From positions 52,431-116,430 of the forward strand of contig CAYXBJ010000178.1 of assembly GCA_964463175.1 (NCBI GenBank): a DNA stretch of 64,000 bases, given 5' to 3'. The position numbers were made by a program, and so were the translations under genes. The notes under the pieces were generated by a model that was not told the origin of the DNA, ran no database searches, and saw only the letters and a list, made by a program, of their open reading frames with translations. Shown here in pieces: positions 23,205 through 42,685 of the stretch (position 1 is its first letter; each line of letters opens with the position of its first letter). This DNA is from an uncultured bacterium. Lineage in GTDB: Bacteria; Methylomirabilota; Methylomirabilia; Rokubacteriales; DASRDR01.

Positions 23205-26123
23205 TCACGATCCCGTGCCGGCCCCGACGGTGGCCAGGCCACGCAGGGCCGCAGCGTTGTCGGGCTGGCGCCGGAGCACGGTGCGATACTGCTGGATCGC
23301 CCGGTCGGCAAGTCCCGCCCGCGCGTACAGGTCGCCGAGCTCCGCGCCAAGGTCGCCGTCCGCCGGGCGGAGCCGCTGCGCCACTTCGTAGCTCGCGATC
23401 GCTTCCCGCAGGTAGCCGGCGCCCCGAAGGGCCTGCGCCGCCGCCCGGTGGAGGCGCCAATCGTCGCCGCCGACCGCGGCCGCCGTCCGGTACTCCTGGA
23501 ACGCCTCGGCGGCCTGCCCCCGCTGCTCGAGCAGCCGGCCGAGCTCGAGATGGACCCAGCCATCGTTCGGCTTGTCGCGAAGGATCTGGCGCCACAGCGT
23601 CACCGCCCGCTCCCACTGGCCGCGCTGGACAAACAGGGCGGCGAGCTCTCCCTGGACACGGTGGCGCCGGCTGGCCGGGCCAGGACCGGACTCGGCCAGA
23701 GTCGCAGCGGTGGCGAGCGCGATGTCCGCCTCCATCCCCTGGTTCGTCTGGGCGTAAACCATGGCGAGGACGGCGAAGACCTCCGCCTCTCCCGGCGCCA
23801 GCACCAGAGTGCGGCGGGCCTGTTCGAGCGCGGCCAGCGGGTCTTTCCGATTGATCAGCACCCGCGCGTACGCGAGTCGCGCCTCCACCTCGGTGGCGGG
23901 CTCCTGCGCGAGCGCGATCGCCTGCTCGAACGCGGCGGTGGCGCCCTGCGTTCGCCCGCGGCGCTCCAGATACGATCCGAGCCCGAGGAGCAGGTCGAAC
24001 TTCTGCGGCACGGTCGCCAGGATGAGCTGGTCGTCCACCTGCCGGGCCAGCAAGTCCTCGACAACGCCGTCGAGGAAGCCGGGGTTCAAGGCCACGGCCC
24101 GGCCGAACGCCGCGCTCGCCACCTCGTAGCGGTCCGGTTGACCGACGGCATTCAGCGCGAACGACCCCATGCGCCGGTGTCGATTCGCGTTCTGGGGGTC
24201 CCAGCGGACGGCGTCCTGGAAGTGCGCCAGGGCTTCGGGGAACACGCTCCGCTCCGACCCGACGGTCCCCGCGAGCCGCGGGTCAATCGGGGTCTGGATC
24301 GGGCTCTTCTGGACGACCTGGCGAACATTCTCCAGGGTTCCGAGGAACCAGCCGAACCGCTCGTGCGTGTCGGCCGCCCGCGGCCGGAGCTGGAGGCTCG
24401 TCCGATACGCCTCGTACGCGTCCGCGAGCAGGGGCTGCGCCGCCTCGAACTTCGCTGCGACGGACAGGTCGGACAGGCGCGCGCCGCTCGCGGTGATCCC
24501 GAGCGTCCAGGCGCGGCGCCCGAGCTCGGCGGAGACGTCGGCGAAGTCCGACCAGGCGGCCGGGTTCGAGCGATCCCAGGCAACGGCCGTCCGGAGGCCG
24601 GCGCGCGCCCGGATCAGATCCCCCTGCGGCGTCCCATCCCTTCGCCAGACACTGGTCACCGTGGAGGCGGCACTCGCTCGTTGCCATCCGGCGACGCTCG
24701 GGGGCGCCAGCAGCACCGTGGCGGCGACCACCGCCACCAGGGCGACGAAGACACTCACCGTGCTCCATCCCGGATTCAGGCGCCAGCCCCACCGCTCCAG
24801 GCCAACACGCTCCCCTTCACCATCCCGGTGGAGGGTCGCCGCCAGCGGCAGCAGCCCGGCAATCAGCGCCAGCATCACCGCATTGCCTGGCATGTGGAGC
24901 CCGAAGTCCACGACACTGTGAACCGTGACCGCGACGATCGCGCCAGTGCCTCCCAGCAGGAGCCCGCGGACGAACGGATCGCGGCGACCGCGCCACGCCT
25001 GCACCAGGGATGTCAGCAGCGCCACCAGTGCCCATCCGGCGATCAGCAGGCCCACCACTCCCGTCTCGGCCAGCAGCTGCAGGAAGTCGTTGTGCGCGTA
25101 GTCCACGAACTTGTCGGCCGGAACCTCGACTGGTTGATAGGGCGCGAAGCCATCCCGGAACGCGCCGAGCCCGATCCCGGCGACCGGCGCATCACCGACG
25201 ACTCGCAGCGTCGTCGCCCAGATTCTCGAGCGCAGATCCGACGCGGGCTCCCGCAGCACCTCGGAGAATCGGTCGGTCACCGCCCCGAGTCCGACCCAGC
25301 CGGCGTAGGTGACAACGCCGAGCGCGAGCGCCAGGATGGCCAGCGTGACGTGGTTCCCGGATCGAGCCGTGCGCGCCATGGCGAGCATGGCCAGCACGCC
25401 GACCACGGTACTCACCACACCGCCGCGGGAGAGCGTGAGGGCGAGCGCGAGCGCCAGGACAAGCACGCCACCGACCAGGAACACTCGCACCGTCAGACCC
25501 TCGAGGGCCCCCGCGGGAGGCGCCGACTCGGACCGCCCCGCGTGTCCGCGGCGCGAATGGGCGGAGGGACGCAAGAGCAGTCCCAGGGCCATGAACAGGG
25601 CGATGGAGAAGTAGAGGGCCTGGTGGTTCGGGTTGACGAAGGTGCTCGTCAGGCGGCCCGACGGGCTGGCCGCGAGCCCGCTCCAACCGATCTTGAGCTG
25701 TCCAGCAAACCCCACCCCGGCCAGGACGACCGCCCAGCCAACCAGCGCGAGCGTCAGCCGGGTGAGGCGCGCGCGGGTCATCGGGAGGCCGGTGACCACG
25801 AGGAACAGACCGAAGTAGGCGAAGTAAAGCCGCGCGCTCTCCCAGGTTGCGTACCGGTTGATCGAGCCGCCGGGCGAGAAGACCTGCCAGCCGACGAGGA
25901 CGGCCATCGCCACCGCCGGTCCCAGCAGTGGAGTCCGGCGAATCTCGAGCTCTCCGGACACCGCCATCCGAACGATCCACAGGGCGAGCAGCAGCGCCAC
26001 GCCGCCCTCGATGCCCGCCTGGGCCCAGGGCACGACGGCACCGAGGGGCAGCGGCGCGAACATCAGGAGCGCCACCACTCCGACCTCGATGACGGCGTCG
26101 ATAACCCGGGCGAGTCCAGTCAC
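23205..26123 (-). CDS. O-antigen ligase/polymerase-family (Wzy_C domain) membrane protein fused to a long C-terminal TPR-repeat domain
   Basis: N-terminal ~430 aa polytopic with Wzy_C hallmarks (LALTLSRGG, YAHNDFLQLLAETGVVGL). C-terminal ~450 aa of TPR-like repeats (...AYARVLINRKDPLAALEQARRTLVLAPGEAE..., ...LGDLYARAGLADRAIQQYRTVLRRQPDNAAALRGLA). Confidence 0.75.
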   Translation of the reverse strand: MTGLARVIDAVIEVGVVALLMFAPLPLGAVVPWAQAGIEGGVALLLALWIVRMAVSGELEIRRTPLLGPAVAMAVLVGWQVFSPGGSINRYATWESARLYFAYFGLFLVVTGLPMTRARLTRLTLALVGWAVVLAGVGFAGQLKIGWSGLAASPSGRLTSTFVNPNHQALYFSIALFMALGLLLRPSAHSRRGHAGRSESAPPAGALEGLTVRVFLVGGVLVLALALALTLSRGGVVSTVVGVLAMLAMARTARSGNHVTLAILALALGVVTYAGWVGLGAVTDRFSEVLREPASDLRSRIWATTLRVVGDAPVAGIGLGAFRDGFAPYQPVEVPADKFVDYAHNDFLQLLAETGVVGLLIAGWALVALLTSLVQAWRGRRDPFVRGLLLGGTGAIVAVTVHSVVDFGLHMPGNAVMLALIAGLLPLAATLHRDGEGERVGLERWGWRLNPGWSTVSVFVALVAVVAATVLLAPPSVAGWQRASAASTVTSVWRRDGTPQGDLIRARAGLRTAVAWDRSNPAAWSDFADVSAELGRRAWTLGITASGARLSDLSVAAKFEAAQPLLADAYEAYRTSLQLRPRAADTHERFGWFLGTLENVRQVVQKSPIQTPIDPRLAGTVGSERSVFPEALAHFQDAVRWDPQNANRHRRMGSFALNAVGQPDRYEVASAAFGRAVALNPGFLDGVVEDLLARQVDDQLILATVPQKFDLLLGLGSYLERRGRTQGATAAFEQAIALAQEPATEVEARLAYARVLINRKDPLAALEQARRTLVLAPGEAEVFAVLAMVYAQTNQGMEADIALATAATLAESGPGPASRRHRVQGELAALFVQRGQWERAVTLWRQILRDKPNDGWVHLELGRLLEQRGQAAEAFQEYRTAAAVGGDDWRLHRAAAQALRGAGYLREAIASYEVAQRLRPADGDLGAELGDLYARAGLADRAIQQYRTVLRRQPDNAAALRGLATVGAGTGS

Positions 26124-26881
26124 TTGGAGCGTGCCTCTCCCGACGAGCGGCCCTTGACCGGGTCATAAGCGCTTCGCGTGTAATACCCGTCGTACGTGTC
26201 GTAGTACCGCTTGGAGTAGCCGTGCGCCGCGGCATCGAACCGGTTGAGCACGGCGCCGATGATCCGTCCCCTCACCGCCTCGATGCGCTCCTTTGCGCGC
26301 CGCAGCGCCACCTCTGGTGTCTGCCCGCTGTCCACGACCAGCAGCACGCCGTCGACGTGCGGCGCGAGCGCGCACGCATCGCTCGTTGCGAGCGCCGGCG
26401 GGGAATCGAGGATCACGACGTCGAAGCGCTCCGCCACCGTGTTCAGGAACTCGTGCATCCGTCGGGAGCCCAGGAGCTCGGCGGGGTTCGGAGGCGTCGG
26501 ACCACTCACCACCAGGGAGAGATTCGGGACGGCGCTCTTGAGGAGCACCGCGGCCAGGAGCGAGTCGCCGACGAGGTACGACGACAGCCCCGGCGTGGTG
26601 GGCTGCCGGAACAGACTGTGGACGCTGGGGCGCCGGAGGTCCGCCTCGACCAGGAGGACCGAGCGTTCCCCCTGCGCCATGCTGATCGCCAGATTGGCCG
26701 CGGTCGTCGACTTGCCCTCACCGGGGCCGGCGCTCGTCACCAGGATGCGCCGGAGCGGGACGTCGGGATTCGCGTAATGGAGGTTGTTCCGGAGCACCCG
26801 GAATGCCTCGGCGGCGAACGACTGAGGGTCATTCAGCGTCACGAGGCTCGAGGGCGAGGACGAGCTCTTCAACGGGGTCAT
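26120..26881 (-). CDS. Bacterial tyrosine autokinase, cytoplasmic subunit (CpsD/CapB-like BY-kinase)
   Basis: Walker A SAGPGEGKSTTAANLA, Walker A' VLLVEADLRRP, Walker B DVVILDSPP, C-terminal Tyr cluster YSKRYYDTYDGYYTRSAY. Confidence 0.85.
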   Translation of the reverse strand: MTPLKSSSSPSSLVTLNDPQSFAAEAFRVLRNNLHYANPDVPLRRILVTSAGPGEGKSTTAANLAISMAQGERSVLLVEADLRRPSVHSLFRQPTTPGLSSYLVGDSLLAAVLLKSAVPNLSLVVSGPTPPNPAELLGSRRMHEFLNTVAERFDVVILDSPPALATSDACALAPHVDGVLLVVDSGQTPEVALRRAKERIEAVRGRIIGAVLNRFDAAAHGYSKRYYDTYDGYYTRSAYDPVKGRSSGEARSK

Positions 26882-26895
26882 CTCCTCTCTCCGAC

Positions 26896-28254
26896 CTAGC
26901 TACGCGCTCGGGGGAGCATGGGAATCAGGGAGAACACGGGTACACCGAGCGCATGCTCCACCTGCTCGGGCGTGCGAACGCTGTCGTCCATGTATTCGAG
27001 GAAGAAGGCAGCGCCGAGGCCCACGATCAGCCCCATGAGCGCGCCGAGCGCCAGGTTCAGCGTCTTTCGCGGCTTGATGGGGGACGTGGGGACGATGGCC
27101 GCCTCCACGATCCGGATGTTGTTCGAGTCCAGACCCTGGCTGAGGCTCGTCTCCTTGAGGCGCTTCAGCAGCACGTCATACAGCTGCTGGTTCGAATCCG
27201 CCTCTCGCTTCAGGATCCCGTACTGGATCTCCTTCTTCCCGAGAGCCTGGGCCTCGTCGCGGTACTGGTTCACGGCCTGGAGCATCGCGTTCTCGCGCGC
27301 CTTGAGCGCGTTGTACTCGCTCTCCATGCTGAGCGAGAGCCGGCCCACCTCTTCGCGGATCTTCAGCTGGATCTCGTCGATCTGGGACTGGATCTTGACG
27401 ACCTCGGGGTGCTTCTCGCGGTATGTCTTGAGGAGCTTGGAGCGCTGAACCTCGAGCTCGACGAGCTGGCCCTTCAGCTTCTGGATCAACGGATTGTTGA
27501 TCACCATCGGCGAGGACTCCAGCAGCTCGGGCTGCGTCGAGGCGCGCTTGAGCTCGCCCAGGCGCGTCTCCATCTCGAGCCGCTTGGCCTTCGCCTCGAT
27601 GTACCCGCTGTTGAATTCGGCGAGCTTACGGACCCCCAGGCTTTGCTTCTCCTCGACCTGGACCAGCCCCGCCTGCTCGCGGTAACGCTGAAGCGCCAGC
27701 TCCGACTCGTTCACCTTGTTCTTGAGGTCGGAGACCTGCGCGGTGAGCCAGCTGAGGGCATCGCGCGCGGACGACAGCTTCAGCTCGAGATTCTGATGGA
27801 CGTACGTGGTCGCCAGGGTATTGGCGATCTCCGCCGCGAGCTTGGGGTCCTCGTCCTCGACACGGATCTCGATCAGGCGCGTGTTCCGGATCGGCTCGAC
27901 CGAGATCGCGCCGAGGAACGACGACGCCGGATCGGCCGCCAGGGCCAGCCCCGGCTTCTTCGTCTTGAGCTCGAGGGTATCGATCACCCGCTCGGCCACG
28001 GGCCGGCTCTTGACGATCTGGACCTGCGTCTCGAAGAACTCCGTGGATTCGGGCGCGATGCCCGCGGCGTCCTGGAAGTTCACCACCCGCGGCCCCTCAC
28101 GCTCGAGGAGCGCCTTGGTCGCCGCCCGGTAGACCGGACGCTGGAGATAGGTGCCGAGAGCCACCGTCGCGACGATCACGACGAAGCACGCGACGACCAG
28201 CCAGGCGTGCTTCCGCAGCACACGGATGTACTCACGCAGATGGACCTGTTCCAT
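26896..28254 (-). CDS. Polysaccharide co-polymerase (Wzz/GumC/CpsC-like PCP-2b, transmembrane subunit without kinase domain)
   Basis: N-terminal TM (LVVACFVVIVATVALGTYL), long coiled-coil periplasmic domain, C-terminal TM (LNLALGALMGLIVGLGAAFFL). Start may be the upstream M (28290). Confidence 0.8.
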   Translation of the reverse strand: MEQVHLREYIRVLRKHAWLVVACFVVIVATVALGTYLQRPVYRAATKALLEREGPRVVNFQDAAGIAPESTEFFETQVQIVKSRPVAERVIDTLELKTKKPGLALAADPASSFLGAISVEPIRNTRLIEIRVEDEDPKLAAEIANTLATTYVHQNLELKLSSARDALSWLTAQVSDLKNKVNESELALQRYREQAGLVQVEEKQSLGVRKLAEFNSGYIEAKAKRLEMETRLGELKRASTQPELLESSPMVINNPLIQKLKGQLVELEVQRSKLLKTYREKHPEVVKIQSQIDEIQLKIREEVGRLSLSMESEYNALKARENAMLQAVNQYRDEAQALGKKEIQYGILKREADSNQQLYDVLLKRLKETSLSQGLDSNNIRIVEAAIVPTSPIKPRKTLNLALGALMGLIVGLGAAFFLEYMDDSVRTPEQVEHALGVPVFSLIPMLPRARS

Positions 28255-28304
28255 GAAACCCTCACTCGACACGGTGTGTCCCGGCGGCATTGCGGCCCCC
28301 TAGC

Positions 28305-29450: not shown

Positions 29451-29590
29451 CTGGAGTTGTTCCTATGCTTTCAGACGCCGGCAGGAGCAGCCGTCCGAGG
29501 TCGCGATAAGGCAGAAGTCCCTGTTGGGCACGATTTAGGTACTACGAGCAACTCTCGTGCCTAGAGTCAGGGAGGAGCAGGCGGGCTAGG

Positions 29591-31222: not shown

Positions 31223-31269
31223 GGCGTGACCCTGGACAGCGCGAAACACCGGCAGACGTCGTGCGCGGC

Positions 31270-32463: not shown

Positions 32464-32559
32464 ACCCCTCCCGGTGACAAAGCAGCGCCACCGTCGGGCA
32501 ACAGACCCGGTACGGTGGCGGCGCTGGTTAGGTTCGCTCTGAACGACCTGGCCGACGGC

Positions 32560-33132: not shown

Positions 33133-33191
33133 GGGCCCATCAGGCCCGGCAGGTACAAGAACTCTATTCAAGGAAACGCGGCAACGATACA

Positions 33192-33207
33192 GCAAGGTGA
33201 GTGCCAA
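33192..33207 (-). promoter_or_regulatory. Sigma-54 (RpoN) -24/-12 promoter directing transcription toward 33132 and the downstream OM/OPX genes
   Basis: Minus-strand sequence TTGGCACTCACCTTGCT matches TGGCAC-N5-TTGC exactly (GG and GC elements, correct spacing). It lies about 60 nt upstream of ATG 33132. Confidence 0.6.
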
Positions 33208-33302
33208 TGGCAAGAGGCTCGACGATTGCCTTGGATGGCGGCCCTCTCGAAGCAAGGAACCGGCTGAAGGGGCCGCCAGTTCCAGGTCAGTTCTCTTGCG
33301 GC

Positions 33303-33313
33303 CTTCCGGGAAG
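33303..33313. promoter_or_regulatory. Inverted repeat CTTCC-G-GGAAG, candidate enhancer-binding-protein site (UAS) about 110 bp upstream of the sigma-54 promoter
   Basis: Perfect 5-bp arms with a 1-bp spacer, in the divergent intergenic region 33133-33400. Confidence 0.3.
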
Positions 33314-33334
33314 ATCAGTGCCCGTGAAATTGCC

Positions 33335-33364
33335 TTGACAGTCCCCCGGTCTGCTCCGGATAGT
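33335..33364 (+). promoter_or_regulatory. Possible sigma-70-type promoter for the NtrC-like gene
   Basis: TTGACA (33335-33340), 17-18 nt spacer, GGATAGT. Lies 37 nt upstream of ATG 33401. Confidence 0.25.
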
Positions 33365-33400
33365 GGAGAGCAGGAGAAATTCCGTAGACTTTTTCCCCTA

Positions 33401-34831
33401 ATGGACCAACCGGTCGTTCTCATAATCCACGAAGACGCGGCTGTCCGGGCCCTGCTCGGGCGGATGCTGCCCTCCTTCGGGTACACGGTCCGGACCGTGA
33501 CATCCGGGGAAGAGGCTATCGACCAGCTCACCCAGGGGGATGTCACCGTCGCCCTCCTGGACCTGGACCTCCCCGGCATGTCGGGCGCCGACACCCTCCG
33601 CGCGATCCGGGCCATGTCCCCTGCTCCCGAAGTCGTGGTCACGTCCGCCCGGGGGACCGTGACGGCTGCCGCGGATGTCGCTCGCCACGGCGCCTTCGAC
33701 TTCGTCCCGCAGCCCTTCGACCTAAAGGACTTGAACCACGTCCTCCGCACGGCCCACGACCAGGCCGTCCGGCGACGCCAGGCGCTCCACCTCGAGGCCG
33801 CGCTCAAGGCCCACGACCCGTTCCCCGAGATCGTCGGCCGGAGCACGGGGATCAAGCGAGTGCTCGCTCTCGTCAACAAAGCCGCGCGGACGCTCTCCCC
33901 CGTCCTCATCCAGGGCGAGAGCGGCACGGGCAAGGAGCTGGTGGCCCGGGCGCTGCACGCCAACAGCCCTCGCGCGAACGCGCCCCTCACAATCGTCGAT
34001 TGCGGCGCCCTCCAGGACACCCTCCTCGAGAGCGAGCTCTTCGGTCACGAGCGCGGTGCGTTCACCGGTGCCCACGGGCTCAAGCACGGGCTCTTCGAGA
34101 CCGCCAACCAGGGCACTCTCTTCCTGGACGAAATAGGCGAGATGAGCCCGGCGACCCAGGTGAAGGTCCTGCGCGCGCTCCAGTCCGGGGAGTTCCGGCG
34201 GATCGGCTCGAACCGCCACATCAAGGCCGATATCCGGGTGATCGCCGCGACGAACAAGGAACTGAAGGACGAAGTCCAGCGCGGCCGCTTCCGGGAAGAT
34301 CTCTACTACCGGATCGCGGTCATCGAGATCTACATGCCCGCGCTCCGGGAGCGGACGGATGACATCCCGCTCTTGGTCGAGCACTTCCTGCGGATCAACG
34401 CCTACGGCGGGCGGGAGCGCCTGCACGTCACGCCGGACGCCATGACGAGCCTGGCGCGGTATGCGTGGCCGGGCAACATCCGCGAGCTGCGGAATGTCAT
34501 CGAGCGGCTGTCGGTCCTCGCGGACAGCCAGGTGCTCACGGTCGACGCCCTGCCGCCGGCCATCGTGAAGGCGTCCCAGGAGCCCACCGAGTCGGCGGGG
34601 CTCCCCCGGCCGGCGGACGCCGGCCGGACCGACGGCGGGGGCGACATGACGCTCGACGATGTGGAGCGGCACCACATCATGCGGACCCTCGAGCGCCACC
34701 GCTGGAACAAGAAGCGGGTCGCGGGCATCCTTGGCATCGACACCAAGACGCTGTACAACAAGCTGCGCCGCTACGGGGTCCCCATCGGCTCACGTGGTGA
34801 CGGCGATGCGGCCGCCAGTTCCTCTGCCTAG
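33401..34831 (+). CDS. Sigma-54-dependent transcriptional activator (NtrC/Fis family; receiver + AAA+ + HTH)
   Basis: Receiver domain (ALLDLDLPGMSG). AAA+ with Walker A GESGTGKELVARALH and GAFTGA motif (ERGAFTGA), ...DIRVIAATN. C-terminal Fis-type HTH (RWNKKRVAGILGIDTKTLYNKLRRYG). Confidence 0.85.
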   Translation: MDQPVVLIIHEDAAVRALLGRMLPSFGYTVRTVTSGEEAIDQLTQGDVTVALLDLDLPGMSGADTLRAIRAMSPAPEVVVTSARGTVTAAADVARHGAFDFVPQPFDLKDLNHVLRTAHDQAVRRRQALHLEAALKAHDPFPEIVGRSTGIKRVLALVNKAARTLSPVLIQGESGTGKELVARALHANSPRANAPLTIVDCGALQDTLLESELFGHERGAFTGAHGLKHGLFETANQGTLFLDEIGEMSPATQVKVLRALQSGEFRRIGSNRHIKADIRVIAATNKELKDEVQRGRFREDLYYRIAVIEIYMPALRERTDDIPLLVEHFLRINAYGGRERLHVTPDAMTSLARYAWPGNIRELRNVIERLSVLADSQVLTVDALPPAIVKASQEPTESAGLPRPADAGRTDGGGDMTLDDVERHHIMRTLERHRWNKKRVAGILGIDTKTLYNKLRRYGVPIGSRGDGDAAASSSA

Positions 34832-34852
34832 ACCAGGAGCCTGGAGACAACC

Positions 34853-35287
34853 ATGAGCGATGATGCGGCGAGCCGTCCGCCCCGGACGGCCGCAACAGAG
34901 GAACGCGAGCGCATCCTCGTCTGCGACGACGATCCGCGCGTGAGGGAAACGATCGTCGAGGCCATGGCCGTCGAGTCGCTGGACGTGGACACCGCAGACC
35001 GCGCCGTGGACGCGATCCAGCGGATCATGCACACGAGCTACCGGGCGCTGATCCTGGACCTGAAGCTCCCCGGTCTGGGCGGGCTCGACGCCATCGCCGT
35101 CGTGAAACGGTTCGACGAGGCGCTGCCGATCATCGTGATGACGGGCCACGCCTCCTACCAGGTGGAGCAGGCGGCCCGGGCGGCCGGGATCTTTTACTAC
35201 CTCGTCAAGCCGTTCAACCTCGACGAGCTGCTGGCCGCGGTCCGCGCCGCGGTCCGGTTCCGGGAGGGTAGTCGGCGGCGCAGCTGA
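34853..35287 (+). CDS. Single-domain response regulator (CheY-like receiver)
   Basis: VCDDD, LILDLKLPGLGG, IVMTGHAS, YLVKPF; 144 aa, no output domain. Confidence 0.8.
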   Translation: MSDDAASRPPRTAATEERERILVCDDDPRVRETIVEAMAVESLDVDTADRAVDAIQRIMHTSYRALILDLKLPGLGGLDAIAVVKRFDEALPIIVMTGHASYQVEQAARAAGIFYYLVKPFNLDELLAAVRAAVRFREGSRRRS

Positions 35288-35308
35288 CGCCGGGGCGAGC
35301 CCGAGGGC

Positions 35309-35653
35309 TCAGGCCTCGGCGAGCAGTCCCCGCACCACTTCGGTCAGGCGGTCGCGGAGCTCCGGATCATCCGGCTCGTAGACATCGAGGATTCCCAGCA
35401 CCCGGACCTTGGGTGCGTGCGCGGGCCAGTGCTTCCGGATGTAAGCCTCGTGTTCCGGTTCCATGACGCAGACCACGTTCGCCCACGCGAGATCCCGTGA
35501 CGTGAGCGGGCGGCCGCCGGGGTCGGGATCGACGCCGGCCGAGCGCGCTTCGTGCTCGCCGCGTCTCGCGACGCTCCAGCTGAGCACCTGAAAGATCTGC
35601 TCACCGACCCGGCTCCGGCAGACATTGCCTCGGCAGACGAACAGGACCCGCAT
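35309..35653 (-). CDS. Low-molecular-weight protein-tyrosine phosphatase (Wzb-like, LMW-PTP/ArsC fold)
   Basis: P-loop VCRGNVCRS (CX5R), DVYEPDD (D-P-Y-like general-acid region); 114 aa. Confidence 0.7.
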   Translation of the reverse strand: MRVLFVCRGNVCRSRVGEQIFQVLSWSVARRGEHEARSAGVDPDPGGRPLTSRDLAWANVVCVMEPEHEAYIRKHWPAHAPKVRVLGILDVYEPDDPELRDRLTEVVRGLLAEA

Positions 35654-35803
35654 GAGTCGAAGGATACCATCGGGGAGCGCCGGCTCTCTTCCGCGGCTCC
35701 GTCATGACGGACCGGGCGGCAGCAGCGGGCACGATCTCCTTGCCCGCGAGCACTTCCGGCGCCAGCGGCTCGGGCCGATCACGGCGGCGGCCCGCGGGCA
35801 ACG

Positions 35804-36502
35804 TCACGCTCGGCCCCCCTCGCCGAGCTGACCGTCGCTCAACGCCAGGACGCGGTCGGCGGCGCGGGCGAGCTCCGCGCTGTGCGTGACCAGCACCACC
35901 GCCGATCGGCCGCTGCGCGCCCGGGCCCGGAGCTCGGCGAGCAGGATGGCGGCGTTCTCCGGGTCCAGGTTCCCGGTGGGCTCGTCCGCCAGGATGACCG
36001 CCGGATCGTTGAGCACGGCGCGACAGAACGCGACCCGCTGCTGCTCCCCGCCGGAGAGCGCCGGCGGGTACTGCTCCGCCCGCTCCGACATGCCCAGTCT
36101 CTGGAGAAGGCTGAGCGCCTCCGTCTCGGCGGCCGCCCGCGCCCGCCCGACGTAGCGGGCAGCGAGGAGCACGTTCTCGCGCGCGGTCATCTCCGGGATG
36201 AGGTTGTACGTCTGGAACACGAAGCCCAGGTGCCGGCCGCGAAAGCCAGCCAATGCTCGACGGCTCGCGCCGGTCAGGCGCTCGTCGCCGAACCAGAGCT
36301 CGCCCCCGTCGCTCCGGTCGAGGCACCCCAGGAGGTTCAGGAGCGTGGACTTCCCCGACCCCGAGCGTCCGACGACGGCCAGAAGCTCCCCGCGGGTCAG
36401 GGCGAGGTCCACCCCGCGGAGCACCTCGAGCACGCGGCCGTCCGGGGTCCGGAAGCGTTTGGTCAGGCCGATTGCCCGGAGGAGCGGAGCGCCGGAGCCC
36501 AC
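35804..36502 (-). CDS. ABC transporter ATP-binding protein (LolD/MacB-NBD/FtsE-like)
   Basis: GRSGSGKSTLLN Walker A, LSGGEQQRVAFCRAV signature, ILADEPTGNLD Walker B. GTG start just downstream of the permease stop. The 5' 145 codons of the track ORF are an out-of-frame read of the permease gene. Confidence 0.8.
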   Translation of the reverse strand: MGSGAPLLRAIGLTKRFRTPDGRVLEVLRGVDLALTRGELLAVVGRSGSGKSTLLNLLGCLDRSDGGELWFGDERLTGASRRALAGFRGRHLGFVFQTYNLIPEMTARENVLLAARYVGRARAAAETEALSLLQRLGMSERAEQYPPALSGGEQQRVAFCRAVLNDPAVILADEPTGNLDPENAAILLAELRARARSGRSAVVLVTHSAELARAADRVLALSDGQLGEGGRA

Positions 36503-36506
36503 GGCG

Positions 36507-37697
36507 TCAGGCCCCGCGCCGGATCGCCTCGGCCGGCGACACCCGGAGGATTCGGACGGTCGCGTACGCGCCGGCGATCGCTCCGAGCACGAGCGCGAAC
36601 CCGAGGGCGAACACCACGAGCCGGCCCGAGAACAGGAACAGGTGCTGGCCCACCTGGGCCGCGCGGGTGTCGAACGCCATCCCGCCGAGCACCGCGACGG
36701 CCGTCCCGAGCAGGCCCCCGCCAAGACTGACGGCGACGCTCTCTCCCAGGACCTCGCCGAGCAGGCGCAGGTCGGTCGCGCCGAGGGCCTGCTTGATCCC
36801 GAAGTCGCGGATCCGCTCGAAGGTCGCGGCCGCGACCGTGTTCGAGAGGGACAGCCCCCCGATGAGGAGCCCGACTCCGGTGACGCCGGCCATGAGCCAG
36901 GAAAAGAACGCCGTCGATCCGGCCAGCTGGTTCGCAATCTCGCTCGGGGCGACGACGTTGACGCCGGCCACCTCGTGGCGGATGCGCTCCGCGAGCGCGT
37001 CCGGATCGACGCCGTCCGCCCACCCCACTGCCGCCCCCGTGTTGAGATCGCTGGGCGTCAGGAGCCCGGCCGTCATGAACAGCGCGCGGAGCGTGGGATC
37101 GAGCCCGAGCCAGAGCTCGCGAGCGTCCTCGATCGGCACGAGGGCGAAGCGGTCGGGCGCGGTGAGCAGGCGCTCGCCGACGCCGACGACCTCGAAGTCG
37201 CGCTCGCCGATTCGGAGTCGGCTGCCGGCGTGCAGGCCGTGCCCCGCCGCCAGGTCGGCGCCGACGACAGCGCGGCCCCGATCGGCCACGGTCAGGCTAC
37301 GCCCTTCCGCGATGGGGAACGTCCGGTAGTTCCGGTTCGGCGACGGGATGCTCAGATCGACGCCCAGGACGAGCTCCTGGGTCACCGAGAAGATCTGGGA
37401 CGTGGCCGGGTTCAGCGGGACCATGACCTGGGGCTGGACCGCCGCGACGCCGGGAACCCGGCGGATCGCCTCGATGGTCTGCCGGCGCAAGAGGCCGCCG
37501 GACGTGAAGCCCGTCCCGGTTCCGATGCCCGCGCCGGCCACCGAGATCTGGCCCAGCACGAAGCGGTGCCCCCCGTCGATGAACCGGCTGATGCGGTCAG
37601 AGAGCGCGCCCAGAGCCACGAGCCCCGCGATCCCGACGGCGATGCCGGCGACCGCGAAGCCATAGCCTCGTGGCAGCACGCGCCACCGCCGGCGCAT
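36507..37697 (-). CDS. ABC transporter permease, FtsX/MacB/LolC-E family (4 TM with large periplasmic domain)
   Basis: N-terminal TM. MacB-PCD-like periplasmic region. C-terminal FtsX domain (...IKQALGATDLRLLGEVLGESVAVSLGGGLLG...). Confidence 0.75.
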   Translation of the reverse strand: MRRRWRVLPRGYGFAVAGIAVGIAGLVALGALSDRISRFIDGGHRFVLGQISVAGAGIGTGTGFTSGGLLRRQTIEAIRRVPGVAAVQPQVMVPLNPATSQIFSVTQELVLGVDLSIPSPNRNYRTFPIAEGRSLTVADRGRAVVGADLAAGHGLHAGSRLRIGERDFEVVGVGERLLTAPDRFALVPIEDARELWLGLDPTLRALFMTAGLLTPSDLNTGAAVGWADGVDPDALAERIRHEVAGVNVVAPSEIANQLAGSTAFFSWLMAGVTGVGLLIGGLSLSNTVAAATFERIRDFGIKQALGATDLRLLGEVLGESVAVSLGGGLLGTAVAVLGGMAFDTRAAQVGQHLFLFSGRLVVFALGFALVLGAIAGAYATVRILRVSPAEAIRRGA

Positions 37698-37722
37698 CGC
37701 GCCTCGGCCGCTCACCCGTCGG

Positions 37723-38976
37723 TCACGCGGCCGCCTTTCGACGCGCGTCGAAGGCACGGACCACCAGCGCGACGTGGGTTCCGCCCCGGGCCAGGCCGTG
37801 CACCAGCGTCGTCTCCGGCCGGCTCTCCATCGCATGCGTCACGAACCGTAGATCTCGACGGATGGGCTCGGAGAGGGGGAGCGCCGGCACGGCGGAGCCC
37901 GCCACCGCGAGCGCCGCGGCGGCCACGCGCAGGCCGCCGAGGCCGGCGTGGTCTCCCGCGAGCGGGGTGAGCGCGGTCAGGCGGGCGGGCGCCGTGCCGA
38001 GCGCGTGCGCCACCACGTCCAGCTCGCAGGCGTCGTGCGCCGGATGGCCGCTTCCCGTGAGATACGCGACCTCGACCGCATCCGACGGAACGCCGGCGGC
38101 GGCGAGGGCGCGACGGACCGTCGCCGGGTCGCGGTGTCGTGTTGCCGGAAATCCGTGGGCGGGCGCCGGGAGATTGCCCCACGCGGCCCCGGCGAGCTCG
38201 CCGTAGACCCGCGCGCCCCGGGTCAGCGCCATCTCCGCCGACTCCAGGACGACGAACGTCGCTCCCTCCCCCAGCACGGTGCCGCTCGCCTGCCGGTCGA
38301 AGGGCCGACAGCCCTCGGGACCCGGCTCCGCTCGGGACATCGTTCCGAGCCGGCTCAGCTCTCGGTAAAGGATCGGGCAGATCTCGTCGCACCCGCCGGC
38401 GAGGACCATGCTCGCCCGTCCCGCGGCGATCAACGCGGCGCCCCGGGCGACCGCCAGGTCGCCGGCCACGTCGACCGCGTTCAACGTGAGCATGGGGCCG
38501 CGCACGCCAACCGCGATCGACACCTGCGCGGCCATGGCGTTCATCACCGTGTTCGGGAAGGTGAGCGGCGAGAGGCCGAAGACCCCTCGCTGGAGAAATC
38601 CGAGCGCGAAGGCCTCCGGCGACCGGAAGTCGCCCCAGTGGGAGCCGAGGACGAGCCCGAGACCGGAGAGCTGCTCCGACTGGAGACTCGCGTCGCCCAG
38701 GGCCAAGCGGGCGGCCACGACCGCGAGCTGGCTCGCGCGCGCCAGCCGGCGCGCTTCGCTCTCCGGCAGGGACAGGACGCGATCGTCGACCTCCGCGCCC
38801 AGCCGGCTCGAGCAGTCGTCGGTCGGAAACGCCCGGATCGGCGCGACCGCGGAGCGGCCGCCGGCGAGGGCCTCGGCGACCGCGGCCCCGTTGCCGGCGC
38901 CGAACGCGCTGACGCTTCCGACGCCGGTGACGACGATGCGCGGCCGGCCGCCGCGCCGGCGCTCAGTCGCCGGCAT
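37723..38976 (-). CDS. Beta-ketoacyl synthase-like protein lacking the active-site Cys (chain-length-factor/KS-beta-like)
   Basis: Thiolase-fold KAS architecture (IVVTGVGSVSAFG..., C-terminal GGTHVALVV). The nucleophile position (canonically ACSS/ACAS) reads NAVDVAGDLA, and the His-His motifs are degenerate. Overlaps the upstream KS stop by 14 nt. Confidence 0.7.
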   Translation of the reverse strand: MPATERRRGGRPRIVVTGVGSVSAFGAGNGAAVAEALAGGRSAVAPIRAFPTDDCSSRLGAEVDDRVLSLPESEARRLARASQLAVVAARLALGDASLQSEQLSGLGLVLGSHWGDFRSPEAFALGFLQRGVFGLSPLTFPNTVMNAMAAQVSIAVGVRGPMLTLNAVDVAGDLAVARGAALIAAGRASMVLAGGCDEICPILYRELSRLGTMSRAEPGPEGCRPFDRQASGTVLGEGATFVVLESAEMALTRGARVYGELAGAAWGNLPAPAHGFPATRHRDPATVRRALAAAGVPSDAVEVAYLTGSGHPAHDACELDVVAHALGTAPARLTALTPLAGDHAGLGGLRVAAAALAVAGSAVPALPLSEPIRRDLRFVTHAMESRPETTLVHGLARGGTHVALVVRAFDARRKAAA

Positions 38977-40183
38977 CGAGGCGGCGCGGCGCGGCCACGC
39001 GCCGGAGCAGAAGGCTCAAGTTCTGACCGCCGAACCCGAAGGAGTTCGACAAGGCGTACTCGATCGAGGCCCGGCGGGCGACGTTCGGCACGCAGTCGAA
39101 CGCGACCTCGGGGTCCGGCTCCGCGAGATTGGCGGTGGGCGGAACGAGACCGTGGACGAGCGTCAGCACCGTCGCGATCGCCTCCAGCGCGCCGGCCGCC
39201 GCCATCGCGTGTCCGACCAGCGACTTGTTGGCGCTCACCAGCACCGCGTCCGGGTCGAACAGCTTGCGGAGCGCGGCGGCCTCGGTGCGATCGTTCTGGG
39301 GCGTGCCGGTCCCGTGCGCGTTGACGTATCCCACGGCGCTCGCCGGGACCCCGGCGCGGTCCAGGGCCTCCGCCATCGCCCGAACGCTCCCCTCGCCGTC
39401 GGGATGGGGCGAGGTCAGGTGGTACGCGTCGGTGCTCAGCCCGTAGCTGGAAAGCTCCGCGTAGCCGCGGGCGCCGCGCGCGCGCGCGTGGGCCTCGTCT
39501 TCCAGCACGACGAACCCGGCGCCCTCGCCGAGCGACATGCCCCGGCGATCCCGGGCGAACGGCCGGCACGGGTCGGGGTCGAGGAGCTTGAGGGCGTTGA
39601 AGCCCATGAAGCAGATGCGGGTCATCGCGTCCACGCCGCCCGCGAGCGCCACCGGCACCTCGCCGGCGGCGATCAGCTCCGCGGCCAGCCCGAGCGCCGC
39701 CCCGCCCGAGCTGCAGGCGAGGACCACGGTCTCCTTGGGGCCGGTCGTGCCGTAGCGGCGCGCGACGACGTCGGCATGGCTGAAGGGCAGGATCGTTCGG
39801 AGGGCGGTCCGGAGCTGCGGGTCGTCGGTCCCCTCGCGCTCGCGGTGCCAGAACCAGTCCTCGGCCTCCAGCATGCCGCCTCCGATGCCGCCGACCACCA
39901 CGGCCGCGGGGCGGAGCTCGCGGCGCGACAGGCCGGAGTCGCGGACGGCCTCGTCCACCGCGGCCACCGCGAAGCGGTCGGCTCGAGCCCGACGCGGCGA
40001 CACGCGGGACAGGACGGTGGCGGCGGGAACCTCGGCGCCGATCCGGGCGCGGAATCCCGTGGTGTCGAAGAGGCCGATGGGGCCGATCGTGCACCGCCCC
40101 GCGGTGAGACCATCCCAGAAGGCGTCCCGACCCGCGCCGTACGCGCTGACGACCCCCAGGCCCGTGACCAGAACCCGCTTCAC
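38963..40183 (-). CDS. Beta-ketoacyl-ACP synthase (KAS II / FabF-like), catalytically intact
   Basis: VLACSSG (Cys), NAHGTGT (His), KSLVGHAMAAAG (His), GFGGQN C-terminus. Confidence 0.85.
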   Translation of the reverse strand: MKRVLVTGLGVVSAYGAGRDAFWDGLTAGRCTIGPIGLFDTTGFRARIGAEVPAATVLSRVSPRRARADRFAVAAVDEAVRDSGLSRRELRPAAVVVGGIGGGMLEAEDWFWHREREGTDDPQLRTALRTILPFSHADVVARRYGTTGPKETVVLACSSGGAALGLAAELIAAGEVPVALAGGVDAMTRICFMGFNALKLLDPDPCRPFARDRRGMSLGEGAGFVVLEDEAHARARGARGYAELSSYGLSTDAYHLTSPHPDGEGSVRAMAEALDRAGVPASAVGYVNAHGTGTPQNDRTEAAALRKLFDPDAVLVSANKSLVGHAMAAAGALEAIATVLTLVHGLVPPTANLAEPDPEVAFDCVPNVARRASIEYALSNSFGFGGQNLSLLLRRVAAPRRLDAGD

Positions 40184-40190
40184 CTGGTGG

Positions 40191-40466
40191 TCACGCCCCC
40201 GGGGCCCGCGCGGCGACGAAGCGCACCAGGGCGCCGAACGTCCCGAAATGCGTCGCCACGTCCTCCCCTTCCTGGATCACGATGCCGAACCGCTCCTCCA
40301 GCGCGATCGACAGCTCGATGAAGTCGAGCGAGTCGAGCCCGAGCGTGCCCTCGATGCCCTTGGGGAGCGGCGTCTCGGAGGTCAGCGCGGACAGACGCGC
40401 CGGGTCGAACCGGAGTCGCTTGACGATGATGTCGCGCAACTCCCCGATGATCGCTCGCTCGTCCAT
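40191..40466 (-). CDS. Acyl carrier protein
   Basis: LGLDSLDFIELSIALEERFG (DSL phosphopantetheine site); 91 aa. Confidence 0.8.
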   Translation of the reverse strand: MDERAIIGELRDIIVKRLRFDPARLSALTSETPLPKGIEGTLGLDSLDFIELSIALEERFGIVIQEGEDVATHFGTFGALVRFVAARAPGA

Positions 40467-40484
40467 CCGTCCTCCCGTCCCTGC

Positions 40485-41444
40485 CTACCGGCCCCAGAGG
40501 ACCGCCCCGTACTCGCTTCGCCACGTGGCGGTCAAGAGCCACGGCTCCGGCGTCCCCTCGCGTCGCGTCCGGGCCAGCGCGAGGAGCGGACCCATCGCCA
40601 GCGCTTCGCCCAGCCGGGGCACCGCCGGGGGTGCGCCGATCTCCTGGAGCATCCGCGCCTCGGCGGCTCCCCGGCCGGCGCCGGCCGCGCCGCTCCACAC
40701 GAGGCGCGGTGCCTGGCCGTCGAGCGCCTGCCCGAGCACCGCGGCGACCGCACGCCGCGCCCCCGACGGCCCGGCGAGCGCGGACGCCCAGCGGAGACGG
40801 CCCGCCCCGCCCGCGTCCAGCAGAAGGCATGCGGCCCCCTCGATGAGCGGGCCGGCGTACAGCCGGCGAGCGCGGCGGAACAGGTCCCAGACCTCGTGGA
40901 ACGCCTCGACGGCGAGCACGAGCACCCGGTCCGCGCGCCCCTCGGCCAGCCAGCGCGCGGCCCACCAGAGGGCCTGCAGCGTCGCCGGAGCGCCACCCAT
41001 GAGGTTCACGTAGGCGCCACGGATCCCGAGCTCGATCGTCACCTCCCCCGGCACCGCGCTGGGTGAGGTGTACGGGAAGTGAAGCGTCGTCGAGGTCTCG
41101 TCCTCGAGGAACGCCCGGTTGGCGGCCGCGTAGCCCGTCGCGCTCACATACAGGATACCCGTTCGCGGCCCGGCCAGGTCGTCCTCGGCCAGACCGGCGT
41201 CGGCGACGGCCGCCTTGGCGGCGGCGACCGCGAACAGGCACTCGCGGGTCGCGCGGCGGAATCGATCGCCGTCCAGGACCGGCGTCGGCGCGGTCACGAG
41301 GCCACGACCGTGCTCGCCGGGTCGCGTCGACGCATCGGGGAGCCCGGGAATCCCGTCGCCCCAGCCTGTCACCACTCCGATCCCGAGGATCCGGGGCGTG
41401 GGCGGAGTCGCGAGCTCCGGTGGCGCCAGTGCGGCCGCCCTCAC
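40485..41444 (-). CDS. KS N-terminal-domain-like protein without catalytic Cys (degenerate ketosynthase half)
   Basis: ILGIGVVTGWG start. The region aligned to the KS nucleophile reads GAYVNLMGGAPATLQALWWAARWL (no Cys), then ADRVLVLAVE. Lacks the C-terminal His-His half. Overlaps the upstream KS gene (ATGA). Confidence 0.5.
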   Translation of the reverse strand: MRAAALAPPELATPPTPRILGIGVVTGWGDGIPGLPDASTRPGEHGRGLVTAPTPVLDGDRFRRATRECLFAVAAAKAAVADAGLAEDDLAGPRTGILYVSATGYAAANRAFLEDETSTTLHFPYTSPSAVPGEVTIELGIRGAYVNLMGGAPATLQALWWAARWLAEGRADRVLVLAVEAFHEVWDLFRRARRLYAGPLIEGAACLLLDAGGAGRLRWASALAGPSGARRAVAAVLGQALDGQAPRLVWSGAAGAGRGAAEARMLQEIGAPPAVPRLGEALAMGPLLALARTRREGTPEPWLLTATWRSEYGAVLWGR

Positions 41445-42685
41445 GGCGTCTCGTCCCCCACCGCCAGCACCAGACTAGCGTTGCAGCCGCCGAAGCCCAG
41501 CGACGTCGACAAGCTCACGCGCGGGCGCCAGGCGCGCGCCGTATTCGGCACGCAGTCCAGGTCGCAGGCGGGATCCGCCTCGCCATAGTTCAGCGTGGGC
41601 GGCACCTGGCCGTGACGGCCCGCGAGCAGACACATGATGGCCTCGAGCGTCGCCGCCGCGCCCATGGTGTGGCCAAGGTGCGCCTTGATGGAGTTCACCG
41701 GGATCTCGTATGCGCGCCGGCCGAGGACGCGCTTGAGCACCTCGGTCTCCAGGCGGTCGTTCGCCGGCGTCCCGGTTCCGTGCGCGCTCACCATCTCCAG
41801 CGCGTCCGGCTCGAGCCCCGCCTCCGCAAGCGCCGCGCGCACGGACAGCTCGAGCCCCCGGCCTTCCGGATCCGGGGCCGTGATGTGGGCGCCGTCCGCC
41901 GTGCTCGCGTGGCCGAGAAGGTGTCCGATCGGGGCGCGCCCGCGGCGAGCCGCCGCGTCGACGCGCTCCAGCACCACCAGGCCCGCTCCCTCGCCCAGGA
42001 GGAGACCGTTGCGCCGCCGATCGAACGGGCGGACGGGGTCCCGCGTCAACGAGCGCAGCGCGTTGAAGCCGCGCTGGACGAAGCGGCAGAGCGCATCCGC
42101 CCCGCCGGCGAGCACGACGTCGGCCTGCCCCGCCCGCAGGAGATCGGCGGCGAGTCCCAGGCTCGTGGCGCCCGACGCGCACGCGGTGGTCACGGTCAGG
42201 ACCGGCCCCCGGGCCCCCAACCAGCGCGCCAGGTTCCGCGTCGGTCCGTCGTACGCGGAGCTGCTCAAGGCGGCCAGCGGGGCCGTTGCCGCGAGGGCAC
42301 GACTCGCCTCGTCGATCCCGCCCAGCGCGGTGCCGATCACCACGCCGATCCGGGCGCCCTCGGGCAGCGCGTCTCTCAGCCCCGCCGTCTCGAGAGCCTC
42401 GCGGGCCGCGTGAACGAGGAATCGCGTGGTCCGGCAGTACGGGTTGCGTCGGGAGGGCCCGGCGCCACCCGGTGGCGGCGCCGAGACCTCGCGCCGCAGC
42501 TTCTTGATCTCGCCCCCTCGCGTGACGCGGAGGTCGTCCACCCGAAAGCCTTCGATCTCGCTGATGCCGGAGGCGCCCGTCACCAGCCCGGCCCAGAACG
42601 CGTCGAGGTCCTGCCCGATCGCGGTCACCACGCCGGCGCCCGTGATCGCGACGGGAGACACGCGGGGCGCGAGGGCCCGCGTCAC
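41441..42685 (-). CDS. Beta-ketoacyl-ACP synthase (KAS I/II-like), catalytically intact
   Basis: VTTACASG (Cys), SAHGTGT (His), KAHLGHTMGAAA (His), GFGGCN. Confidence 0.85.
   Translation of the reverse strand: MTRALAPRVSPVAITGAGVVTAIGQDLDAFWAGLVTGASGISEIEGFRVDDLRVTRGGEIKKLRREVSAPPPGGAGPSRRNPYCRTTRFLVHAAREALETAGLRDALPEGARIGVVIGTALGGIDEASRALAATAPLAALSSSAYDGPTRNLARWLGARGPVLTVTTACASGATSLGLAADLLRAGQADVVLAGGADALCRFVQRGFNALRSLTRDPVRPFDRRRNGLLLGEGAGLVVLERVDAAARRGRAPIGHLLGHASTADGAHITAPDPEGRGLELSVRAALAEAGLEPDALEMVSAHGTGTPANDRLETEVLKRVLGRRAYEIPVNSIKAHLGHTMGAAATLEAIMCLLAGRHGQVPPTLNYGEADPACDLDCVPNTARAWRPRVSLSTSLGFGGCNASLVLAVGDETP

Follow-up and report, generated by a model that had tools for sequence, protein, structure and literature searches.

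The DNA analysed here, 64,000 nucleotides of a contig from an uncultured bacterium of the Rokubacteriales (hereafter the window), has a G+C content of 69% and carries on its minus strand, at 35309-35653, a short protein tyrosine phosphatase (PTP) gene that is the subject of this report. The gene stands between a series of ketosynthase (KS), acyl carrier protein (ACP) and exporter genes on one side and the regulator genes of an exopolysaccharide (EPS) locus on the other (Table 1). Its open reading frame (ORF) of 114 amino acids shows the G+C pattern of a real gene at the three codon positions (0.76/0.46/0.83), and the translation begins MRVLFVCRGNVCRS. The gene for a PTP of low molecular weight (LMW-PTP) with the CX5R loop VCRGNVCRS that the original prediction recognised at this place was confirmed by its match to Pfam LMWPc, by its fold and by its conserved residues. 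The loop reads C7-X5-R13-S14, and the gene product is a trimmed member of the LMW-PTP fold with its predicted catalytic residues intact.

More than 100 metagenome homologues share 53-97% identity with this protein, and the exact sequence is already in NCBI/JGI under the name 'predicted protein tyrosine phosphatase'. Against Pfam PF01451 (LMWPc) it scores 37.3 bits, above the gathering threshold of 23.2, with the match confined to residues 3-45, corresponding to profile positions 1-43 of 144. An AlphaFold2 model made from 22 family sequences (pLDDT 94.7) shows, as expected of an LMW-PTP, four parallel strands in an alpha/beta fold, and the catalytic Asp stands on the loop preceding the last helix. 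The top Foldseek matches of the model are YwlE, TT1001 and E. coli Wzb (E 1e-9 to 1e-8). Their TM-scores are about 0.8 on the query and about 0.6 on the targets, so the protein is, as modelled, an LMW-PTP core with parts missing. The variable (W) loop and helix alpha2, which form one wall of the phosphotyrosine pocket, were not found. Across the family C7, N10, R13 and S14 are invariant or nearly so; D90, the general acid in the D-loop IPDVY, and Y92 are invariant in the family alignment (A1), with Phe in place of Y92 in three further sequences. Judged by profile search, the trimmed form is widespread, not rare: 511 clusters (50% identity) match the mini-PTP profile at E <= 1e-10, and most among the matches listed are 100-125 amino acids long and aligned end to end. 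The same trimmed architecture is seen in the mini LMW-PTP group that JGI names 'predicted protein tyrosine phosphatase' (100-125 amino acids), whose genomic contexts differ widely between members; we found no experimentally characterised member of this group. Enterobacterial relatives (Kosakonia L035 3937-10336; L036-L062; related loci are cited here by L numbers) are about 110 amino acids long and 31-39% identical to the window protein. Their genes lie about 200 nt past phnP and close a C-P lyase phosphonate operon in which phnK, L, M, N and P were identified; NCBIfam models gave no match to these proteins.

The original prediction had called the gene Wzb-like. Wzb of E. coli (PDB 2fek, 2wja, 2wmy) has the fold in common with the window protein (Foldseek E about 4e-8), and a CX5R(S) P-loop is present in each. 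In the alignment IPDVY is the counterpart of the catalytic IPDPY of Wzb, K82 that of K100 and position 59 (D/N59) that of D77. However, the window protein has 114 residues against 147 in Wzb: it lacks 16 residues equivalent to Wzb 50-65 (the alpha2 region following the variable loop) and 7 equivalent to D-loop residues 106-112 (HWDNECE), which hold the docking residues H106/W107, and its last (C-terminal) helix is 7 residues shorter. The E. coli K-12 Wzb sequence used for this alignment agrees with 12 of the 12 residue numbers cited in PMC9245664. In the NMR-based Wzb-Wzc complex, Wzb places F2, D77, P95/R98/G99/K100, M102, H106/W107 and its C-terminus on the EX2RX2R helix of the kinase (PMC9245664). 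Both this helix and the Tyr cluster of the partner kinase also occur in the BY-kinase (bacterial tyrosine kinase) of the window. The equivalent of Wzb K100 is kept in the window protein, the docking set as a whole being incomplete. Nor does the gene lie in or adjoin a wza-wzb-wzc export operon, since the kinase is 9 kb off with regulators between; a place inside the kinase/export cluster was found only in the relative L079. With the alpha2 region, the D-loop stretch and part of the C-terminal helix missing, the name overstated the likeness. Membership of the Wzb type is not supported, and a Wzb-like job with a smaller interface is possible.

The best Foldseek match is YwlE, the protein arginine phosphatase of B. 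subtilis (PDB 4etn, 4kk3; E 1.6e-9, TM 0.81 on the query). In a HMMER alignment residues 1-49 and 49-85 correspond to YwlE 1-47 and 68-104, and the 20 residues YwlE 48-67 have no counterpart. The P-loop has Val11 where YwlE has Thr (C-x-G-N-T-C-R-S), a residue reported to confer phospho-arginine specificity, and no McsB-type kinase was seen among the annotated genes of the window.

Within the minus-strand KS/CLF/ACP/KS/CLF-permease-ABC series (CLF, chain-length factor) the gaps are at most 18 nt, and the 150-nt gap before the PTP gene is the largest. The ABC transporter ATPase, 75-93% identical to that of relatives as an in-frame protein, is the last tightly coupled gene of this KS/ACP/exporter operon. 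On the other side, the receiver-only response regulator gene ends 21 nt from the PTP stop codon and is a conserved PTP neighbour in nearly all related loci. The original prediction made the PTP gene the last of the KS/ACP/ABC operon and convergent to the receiver gene: the order, strand and convergence held, whereas the wide gap and a candidate promoter of its own, described below, qualify its membership of that operon.

The region 454-35287 is a complete Wzx/Wzy-type EPS locus with genes for glycosyltransferases, a Wzx flippase, a deacetylase, a priming sugar transferase, Wzy-TPR, a GAF histidine kinase, two Poly_export proteins and the outer-membrane protein BBP2. Its BY-kinase passes TIGR01007 (167.9 bits against 108); the docking motif reads E-AF-R-VL-R, and 7 Tyr lie within the last 35 residues. 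The adjoining polysaccharide co-polymerase (PCP) has EpsF and pepcterm_ChnLen as its best NCBIfam matches, both under cutoff. The kinase is genuine, the PCP is present, and the two lie about 9 kb from the PTP gene, as had been predicted; only the PCP end once placed at 28254 needed correction, since it would be an internal start in an ORF that runs to 28290. No second PTP- or PHP-type phosphatase was found among the annotated genes of the 64 kb.

Table 1. Coordinates of the PTP gene and of the other features of the window
Feature	Coordinates	Strand	Evidence and remarks
BY-kinase, candidate PTP substrate	26120..26881	-	Walker A/A'/B, E-x2-R-x2-R, C-terminal cluster of 7 Tyr
Polysaccharide co-polymerase (PCP)	26896..28290	-	Pfam Wzz + GNVR
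Sigma54 promoter consensus TGGCAC-N5-TTGC	33192..33206	-	Perfect match, between sigma54 regulator gene and BBP2/Poly_export operon, facing the export operon
Sigma54-dependent response regulator (NtrC/PrsR-like)	33410..34831	+	Pfam, NCBIfam; listed ORF from 32657, receiver domain starts near 33416
Receiver-only response regulator, 144 aa	34853..35287	+	Pfam Response_reg 84.8 bits; convergent to PTP
PTP gene	35309..35653	-	Trimmed ('mini') LMW-PTP-fold phosphatase, 114 aa; catalytic C7, R13, S14, D90, Y92
ABC-PTP spacer, 150 nt	35654..35803	-	Remainder after loss of the CDP-alcohol transferase/HpnL-like/HpnJ block
Invariant 12-mer CGATGGTATCCT	35661..35672	-	Extended -10-like TG-G-TATCCT, ends 7 nt before ATG
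ABC transporter ATPase (LolD/MacB/DevA-like)	35804..36502	-	Pfam, NCBIfam; in-frame GTG start at 36502
MacB_PCD/FtsX permease	36507..37835	-	Pfam; start codon uncertain
Lipid/polyketide core genes	37723..42685	-	Pfam, NCBIfam
KS/CLF-like	37723-38976	-	Pfam, NCBIfam
KS (second)	38963-40183	-	Pfam, NCBIfam
ACP	40191-40466	-	Pfam, NCBIfam
KS-N/CLF-like	40485-41444	-	Pfam, NCBIfam
KS	41441-42685	-	Pfam, NCBIfam

The locus was compared with 15 genome loci and about 40 metagenome loci, using tblastn with the window proteins and Pfam/NCBIfam; the relatives belong to Candidatus Rokubacteria/Rokuibacteriota and Methylomirabilota. In about 35 of these loci the ABC and PTP genes are separated by three others, for a CDP-alcohol transferase, for an HpnL-like protein and for HpnJ, a radical-SAM protein. 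The majority order begins with KS...(family 2 glycosyltransferase (GT2), FAD-halogenase-like)-FtsX-ABC, sometimes with a large GSDH/PKD/PA14 protein; it continues with a 400-residue CDP-alcohol phosphatidyltransferase, the HpnL-like membrane protein, the B12/radical-SAM protein (HpnJ) and the PTP; and it ends with the convergent receiver and sigma54 regulator genes and the divergent, sigma54-driven EPS export operon with the BY-kinase. This layout reaches down to 45-56% PTP identity (L014, L110, L113), and HpnJ immediately precedes the PTP gene in all orthologous loci but one monophyletic subclade; in L004 the two ORFs overlap by 4 nt. The radical-SAM protein of the relatives passes the HpnJ equivalog TIGR03471 (749 bits against 577.6), HpnJ being the enzyme required for bacteriohopanetetrol cyclitol ether (PMC13459092). 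The best NCBIfam matches of the transferase are IPCT/DIPPS, phosphatidylinositol phosphate (PIP) synthase and archaetidylinositol-phosphate (AIP) synthase (E 1e-13 to 1e-15), at 48-57 bits far under the family cutoffs of 170-580.

None of the three genes was detected by tblastn anywhere in the 64-kb window, and the ABC gene stands directly before the PTP gene only in the window and in L080, L081, L082, L084, L086 and L133. These deletion-type loci, six of the seven included, group together in a neighbour-joining PTP tree on 114 residues, which was used only for this grouping, its deeper branches being unreliable. Since the layout is confined to one subclade and the block is present in about 35 relatives, the ABC-PTP adjacency is, on comparison of the gene orders, a derived state produced by deletion. 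The synteny comparison proposed with the original prediction thus recovered the adjacency in 7 contigs and the intervening HpnJ block in about 35 loci. The supposed wiring of the phosphatase to the lipid-export operon, which would have coupled kinase dephosphorylation to expression of that operon, is a by-product of a lineage-specific deletion, the ancestral place of the gene being behind HpnJ. Within the deletion subclade the ratio of nonsynonymous to synonymous substitutions (dN/dS) of the PTP gene is 0.02-0.14, at dS 0.46-0.86; such strong purifying selection after the deletion indicates that the gene stayed useful without the HpnJ block. Other parts of the lipid cluster vary as well. Relatives carry GT2 (polyprenyl-phosphate glycosyl synthase-like) and FAD-dependent halogenase/geranylgeranyl-reductase-like genes between the last KS and FtsX (compare window 36507-38976 with L002 2844-4897 and L077 1054-3080). 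Both genes are lost in the window and in L081, which leaves the lipid cluster of the window lineage reduced to KS/ACP plus exporter.

Among members of the deletion subclade the spacer between the ABC and PTP genes differs in length, from about 68 to 158 nt, and is largely unalignable. Short-word blastn of the spacer gave a sole recurrent match, the 12-mer CGATGGTATCCT, identical in all seven deletion-type contigs, 6-8 nt from the ATG, in a reading frame that is not constant. In the relatives the same 12-mer lies about 235 nt before the HpnJ start, within the HpnL-like gene, where it encodes D-G-I-L. In a codon comparison drawn from L001-L014, L077 and L083-L114, GAT GGT AT(N) (Asp-Gly-Ile/Met) is invariant in all 26 HpnL-like genes (e.g. 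L004 8270-8300; L077 7263-7290). GAT makes up 16% of the Asp codons and GGT 7% of the Gly codons of these genes, and neighbouring codons vary synonymously. Such invariance of rare codons amid synonymous variation implies constraint at the nucleotide level, and the element is probably a cis-element, an internal extended -10 promoter: TG-G-TAT-N-CT fits the extended -10 element. A -10 element ending 6-8 nt before an ATG has the geometry of a leaderless transcript, and no Shine-Dalgarno motif was found before the PTP ATG. The conservation of CGATGGTATCCT suggests that it is a candidate independent promoter for a leaderless PTP mRNA. The original prediction had named an independent promoter or a terminator in this spacer as evidence against the coupling; the former is plausibly present as the 12-mer, invariant in 7 contigs where the rest of the spacer cannot be aligned. 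As to the latter, a scan of 34700-36100 found no terminator-like or sigma70-like consensus sites on the minus strand of the spacer, so read-through from the ABC gene may occur.

Other searches of the spacer were negative. Its RNA fold is no more stable than that of shuffled sequences (z -1.1), Rfam gave no match over 32400-36000 at a permissive threshold, and no convincing homology to the 3' end of HpnJ in relatives was seen. The only sigma54 motif in it, a 2-mismatch match at 35750-35764, was rejected as being at chance level (36 in the window against 45 expected). In the closest relatives, the deletion-type contigs L080 (2104-2148) and L133 (2506-2550), an upstream in-frame ATG adds a 15-residue N-terminal extension, MCASARALADGILRP, to the PTP frame; gene callers adopted it, giving 129-residue products (P0001, P0118). 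The extension is probably an annotation artefact, since its 'DGIL' is an HpnL-derived remnant.

The gene is also found in rearranged and distant loci. In L002 HpnJ is down to fragments and the PTP gene is intact beside the lipid cluster, with no EPS genes nearby. In L079 (63% identical) it lies on the opposite strand, between the Wzy-TPR and GAF histidine kinase genes of the EPS cluster, 3 kb from the BY-kinase gene and with no lipid genes nearby, a position that requires relocation into the EPS cluster. A separate branch (L075 5279-10081/L076, L105 12-3498, L111 36-4581) has the order GAF-HD (HD_5), a 300-residue protein without Pfam match, receiver, PTP and TatA/B, with LexA past TatA/B in L075; the receiver is a 117-residue receiver-only regulator, encoded 25-100 nt upstream of the PTP gene on the same strand. 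In L100 a CHASE2-cyclase-PilZ gene adjoins the PTP gene. Rokubacterial mini-PTP paralogues adjoin NMT1-like binding proteins: L012 10001-12403, L013 8601-10975 and L095 1-1674 hold a second mini-PTP copy in the same metagenome-assembled genomes (MAGs), beside an NMT1_3/phosphonate-binding-like periplasmic protein. The frame of this second copy runs on well beyond 114 residues in L012 (800) and L013 (344), which may reflect fusions or assembly errors in long-read MAGs. Across the gene orders compared, the most recurrent company of the PTP gene is signalling genes; its most frequent neighbour is the lipid block, which is yet dispensable.

Our preferred reading, held tentatively, is that the protein is a trimmed LMW-PTP signalling phosphatase of the regulatory layer of the EPS locus, with the BY-kinase as its most probable candidate substrate and with expression at least partly from its own promoter. 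On comparison of the loci, the ancestral order was KS...FtsX-ABC-(PKD protein)-CDP-alcohol transferase-HpnL-like-HpnJ-PTP, followed by the convergent receiver and sigma54 regulator genes and the EPS export operon. The subclade of the window deleted the transferase/HpnL/HpnJ block, keeping the PTP gene plus a 12-nt piece of the HpnL-like gene. An internal promoter in that gene, once serving HpnJ and PTP, would have survived the deletion, and the retained 12-nt extended -10 element would now start a leaderless transcript and drive the PTP gene alone, making its expression at least partly independent of the KS/ACP/ABC operon. The phosphatase may then act on the phosphorylated Tyr cluster of the BY-kinase, doing a Wzb-like job with a reduced docking surface. 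The kinase is favoured as substrate by its Tyr cluster and EX2RX2R motif, by the lack of a second phosphatase of PTP or PHP type in the 64 kb, by the location in L079 and by the signalling neighbours. On these grounds the original pairing of the PTP with the BY-kinase survives in part: the kinase with its Tyr cluster is genuine, no other candidate phosphatase was seen and the L079 gene lies in the cluster, whereas the Wzb docking set is incomplete.

Several observations weigh against this reading. The docking surface is reduced, the stretch with Wzb H106/W107 being deleted and the R98 equivalent not conserved, and the D77 position is Asn in the window protein, though Asp in most relatives. L005, L008, L010 and L113 keep the PTP gene though the EPS export/BY-kinase block next to it is absent or in fragments. 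Ancestrally the gene is co-directional with HpnJ, with stop and start codons often overlapping (translational coupling), and stands behind the gene of a CDP-alcohol transferase of inositol-phosphate type, an enzyme with products that would call for a phosphatase. As to its expression, the promoter call depends on sequence conservation only: no sigma70-type site with both hexamers was found by consensus scan, and no -35 element is evident.

The main rival, rather unlikely in our estimation, makes the protein a lipid head-group phosphatase, the last enzyme of the transferase/HpnL/HpnJ block. The transferase would add an inositol-phosphate-like alcohol in the manner of PIP, AIP and DIPP synthases, giving a phosphorylated head group, and the soluble mini-PTP would remove the phosphate; the lineage of the window would retain the gene as a leftover, or for a pathway copy elsewhere in the genome. 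The order transferase-HpnL-like-HpnJ-PTP in about 35 loci, with short gaps or overlaps, fits such a role, as does the nearness of the transferase to inositol-phosphate-transferring families, although its scores fall far under the family cutoffs (48-57 against 170-580 bits). The PTP gene of L002 stays with the lipid cluster with no EPS genes near, but it is intact there despite a fragmentary HpnJ. A paralogue in L013 lies 2 kb from another CDP-OH_P_transf gene, whereas L079 and the L075 group carry the PTP gene without lipid genes, and strong purifying selection acts on it in the subclade that lacks the block. The trimmed walls of the active site point to some substrate different from a docked kinase; yet the aromatic position behind the catalytic Asp (Y92, F in a few) is conserved as in protein-directed LMW-PTPs, and we know of no LMW-PTP-fold lipid phosphatase. 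It is quite improbable that the trimmed LMW-PTP is the dedicated phosphatase of an undescribed lipid head-group pathway, in which an inositol-phosphate-type CDP-alcohol transferase would be joined by a flippase (HpnL-like) and a ring-contracting radical-SAM enzyme (HpnJ) on a KS/ACP/ABC-exporter cluster. On that reading an LMW-PTP fold would act on the phosphate of a membrane lipid; the gene would be expressed from a promoter inside the HpnL-like coding sequence and, in the window lineage, would have been kept and turned to another job once the pathway was deleted. Our literature search found no paper joining LMW-PTP, CDP-alcohol phosphatidyltransferase and radical SAM.

In a further alternative, unlikely as it appears, the phosphatase belongs to the two-component/sigma54 module and acts not on the BY-kinase but on the receiver-only regulator or the sigma54 activator (on Tyr or another residue). 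In nearly every locus the gene directly beside the PTP gene is that of a receiver-only regulator, in L075/L076, L105 and L111 the gene of the 117-residue receiver precedes it by 25-100 nt on its own strand, a GAF histidine kinase gene adjoins in L079, and the receiver neighbourhood outlasts loss of the lipid block or of the EPS export block. However, the two receiver proteins are only 25% identical, receiver genes are so common that adjacency may be chance, and in the main layout the genes are convergent and not co-transcribed; to our knowledge no LMW-PTP acts on phospho-Asp receivers. That the gene depends for its expression wholly on the KS/ACP/ABC operon, as its last cistron, with kinase dephosphorylation tracking lipid export, is improbable. 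It lies on the strand of the operon, no terminator-like site was found in the 150-nt gap and the layout is stably inherited in 7 contigs; yet this layout is deletion-derived and limited to one subclade, the conserved -10-like element stands right at the PTP ATG, the spacer varies in length and is the largest gap of the operon, and there is no Shine-Dalgarno motif for internal initiation. A thioredoxin-coupled ArsC-type arsenate reductase (pI258; B. subtilis), which shares the fold and P-loop and is similarly short (124-131 residues), is very improbable and was rejected, as the original prediction had already leaned to do in seeing no arsenate-reductase Cys triad. The only cysteines are C7, C12 and C62, the last buried in strand beta3 (E60-63), with no equivalent of the Cys82/Cys89 pair on the following loop that makes up the triad with the P-loop Cys in pI258 ArsC (1jf8); the catalytic Asp loop IPDVY is present, though absent from ArsC; structure ranking puts all LMW-PTPs above any ArsC; and no ars genes, the usual context of ArsC, occur among the annotated neighbours in the 64-kb window.

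The sigma54 promoter consensus that faces the export operon is the sole zero-mismatch match in the window and occurs at the same relative place in 8 relatives (L003, L004, L005, L007, L009, L077, L090, L096); a one-mismatch copy lies at 29548-29562 (minus strand), about 100 nt ahead of the Poly_export gene that comes second (28305-29450). The two Poly_export/SLBB (Wza-like) genes stand in tandem at 28305-31708 on the minus strand and encode 381 and up to 705 amino acids. The locus resembles the XrtA/PEP-CTERM (Eps) loci: both Poly_export proteins pass TIGR03027 pepcterm_export (191 and 196 against 180 bits), and the kinase, PCP, outer-membrane protein, sugar transferase and sigma54 regulator match pepcterm/Eps models best or near-best, most of these matches being under the equivalog cutoffs. 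The conserved sigma54 promoter facing the export operon is a further likeness, to the XrtA/PEP-CTERM loci with a PrsK/PrsR sigma54 two-component system. No exosortase gene was detected in the window, and we know of no phosphatase that is a defined part of the XrtA/PEP-CTERM system. About 940 nt at 32464-33400 separate the BBP2 gene from the probable start of the sigma54 regulator and likely hold a small minus-strand gene just downstream of the sigma54 promoter; at that place two relatives have an unannotated gene of 175-186 amino acids (L001 12622-13149, L077 11473-12033). Above 43040 lie genes for Liv-type importers and CoA ligases, which have no bearing on the PTP question. Among them, a branched-chain amino-acid permease gene (BPD_transp_2) at 52602-53536 (minus strand) is in two overlapping ORFs, 53132-53536 (profile 3-87) and 52602-53198 (profile 89-266), suggesting a frameshift or sequencing error.

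The gains of this analysis are modest, and no new mechanism is demonstrated: the protein family, its fold and the locus type are already known, and the PTP is an uncharacterised variant that is structurally distinct within that fold. The gene order carries a caution, in that a striking 'operon wiring' can be a mere deletion scar, and a promoter element hidden in coding sequence, apparently kept and re-used for a leaderless gene, offers a testable case. BY-kinases need a counteracting phosphatase to cycle, and outside Proteobacteria and Firmicutes this partner is often unknown. If the trimmed PTP is the partner of the BY-kinase, the Wzb docking surface defined in E. coli would be dispensable, and the 'predicted tyrosine phosphatases' of 100-125 amino acids, with their 511 clusters, would have a first functional anchor.

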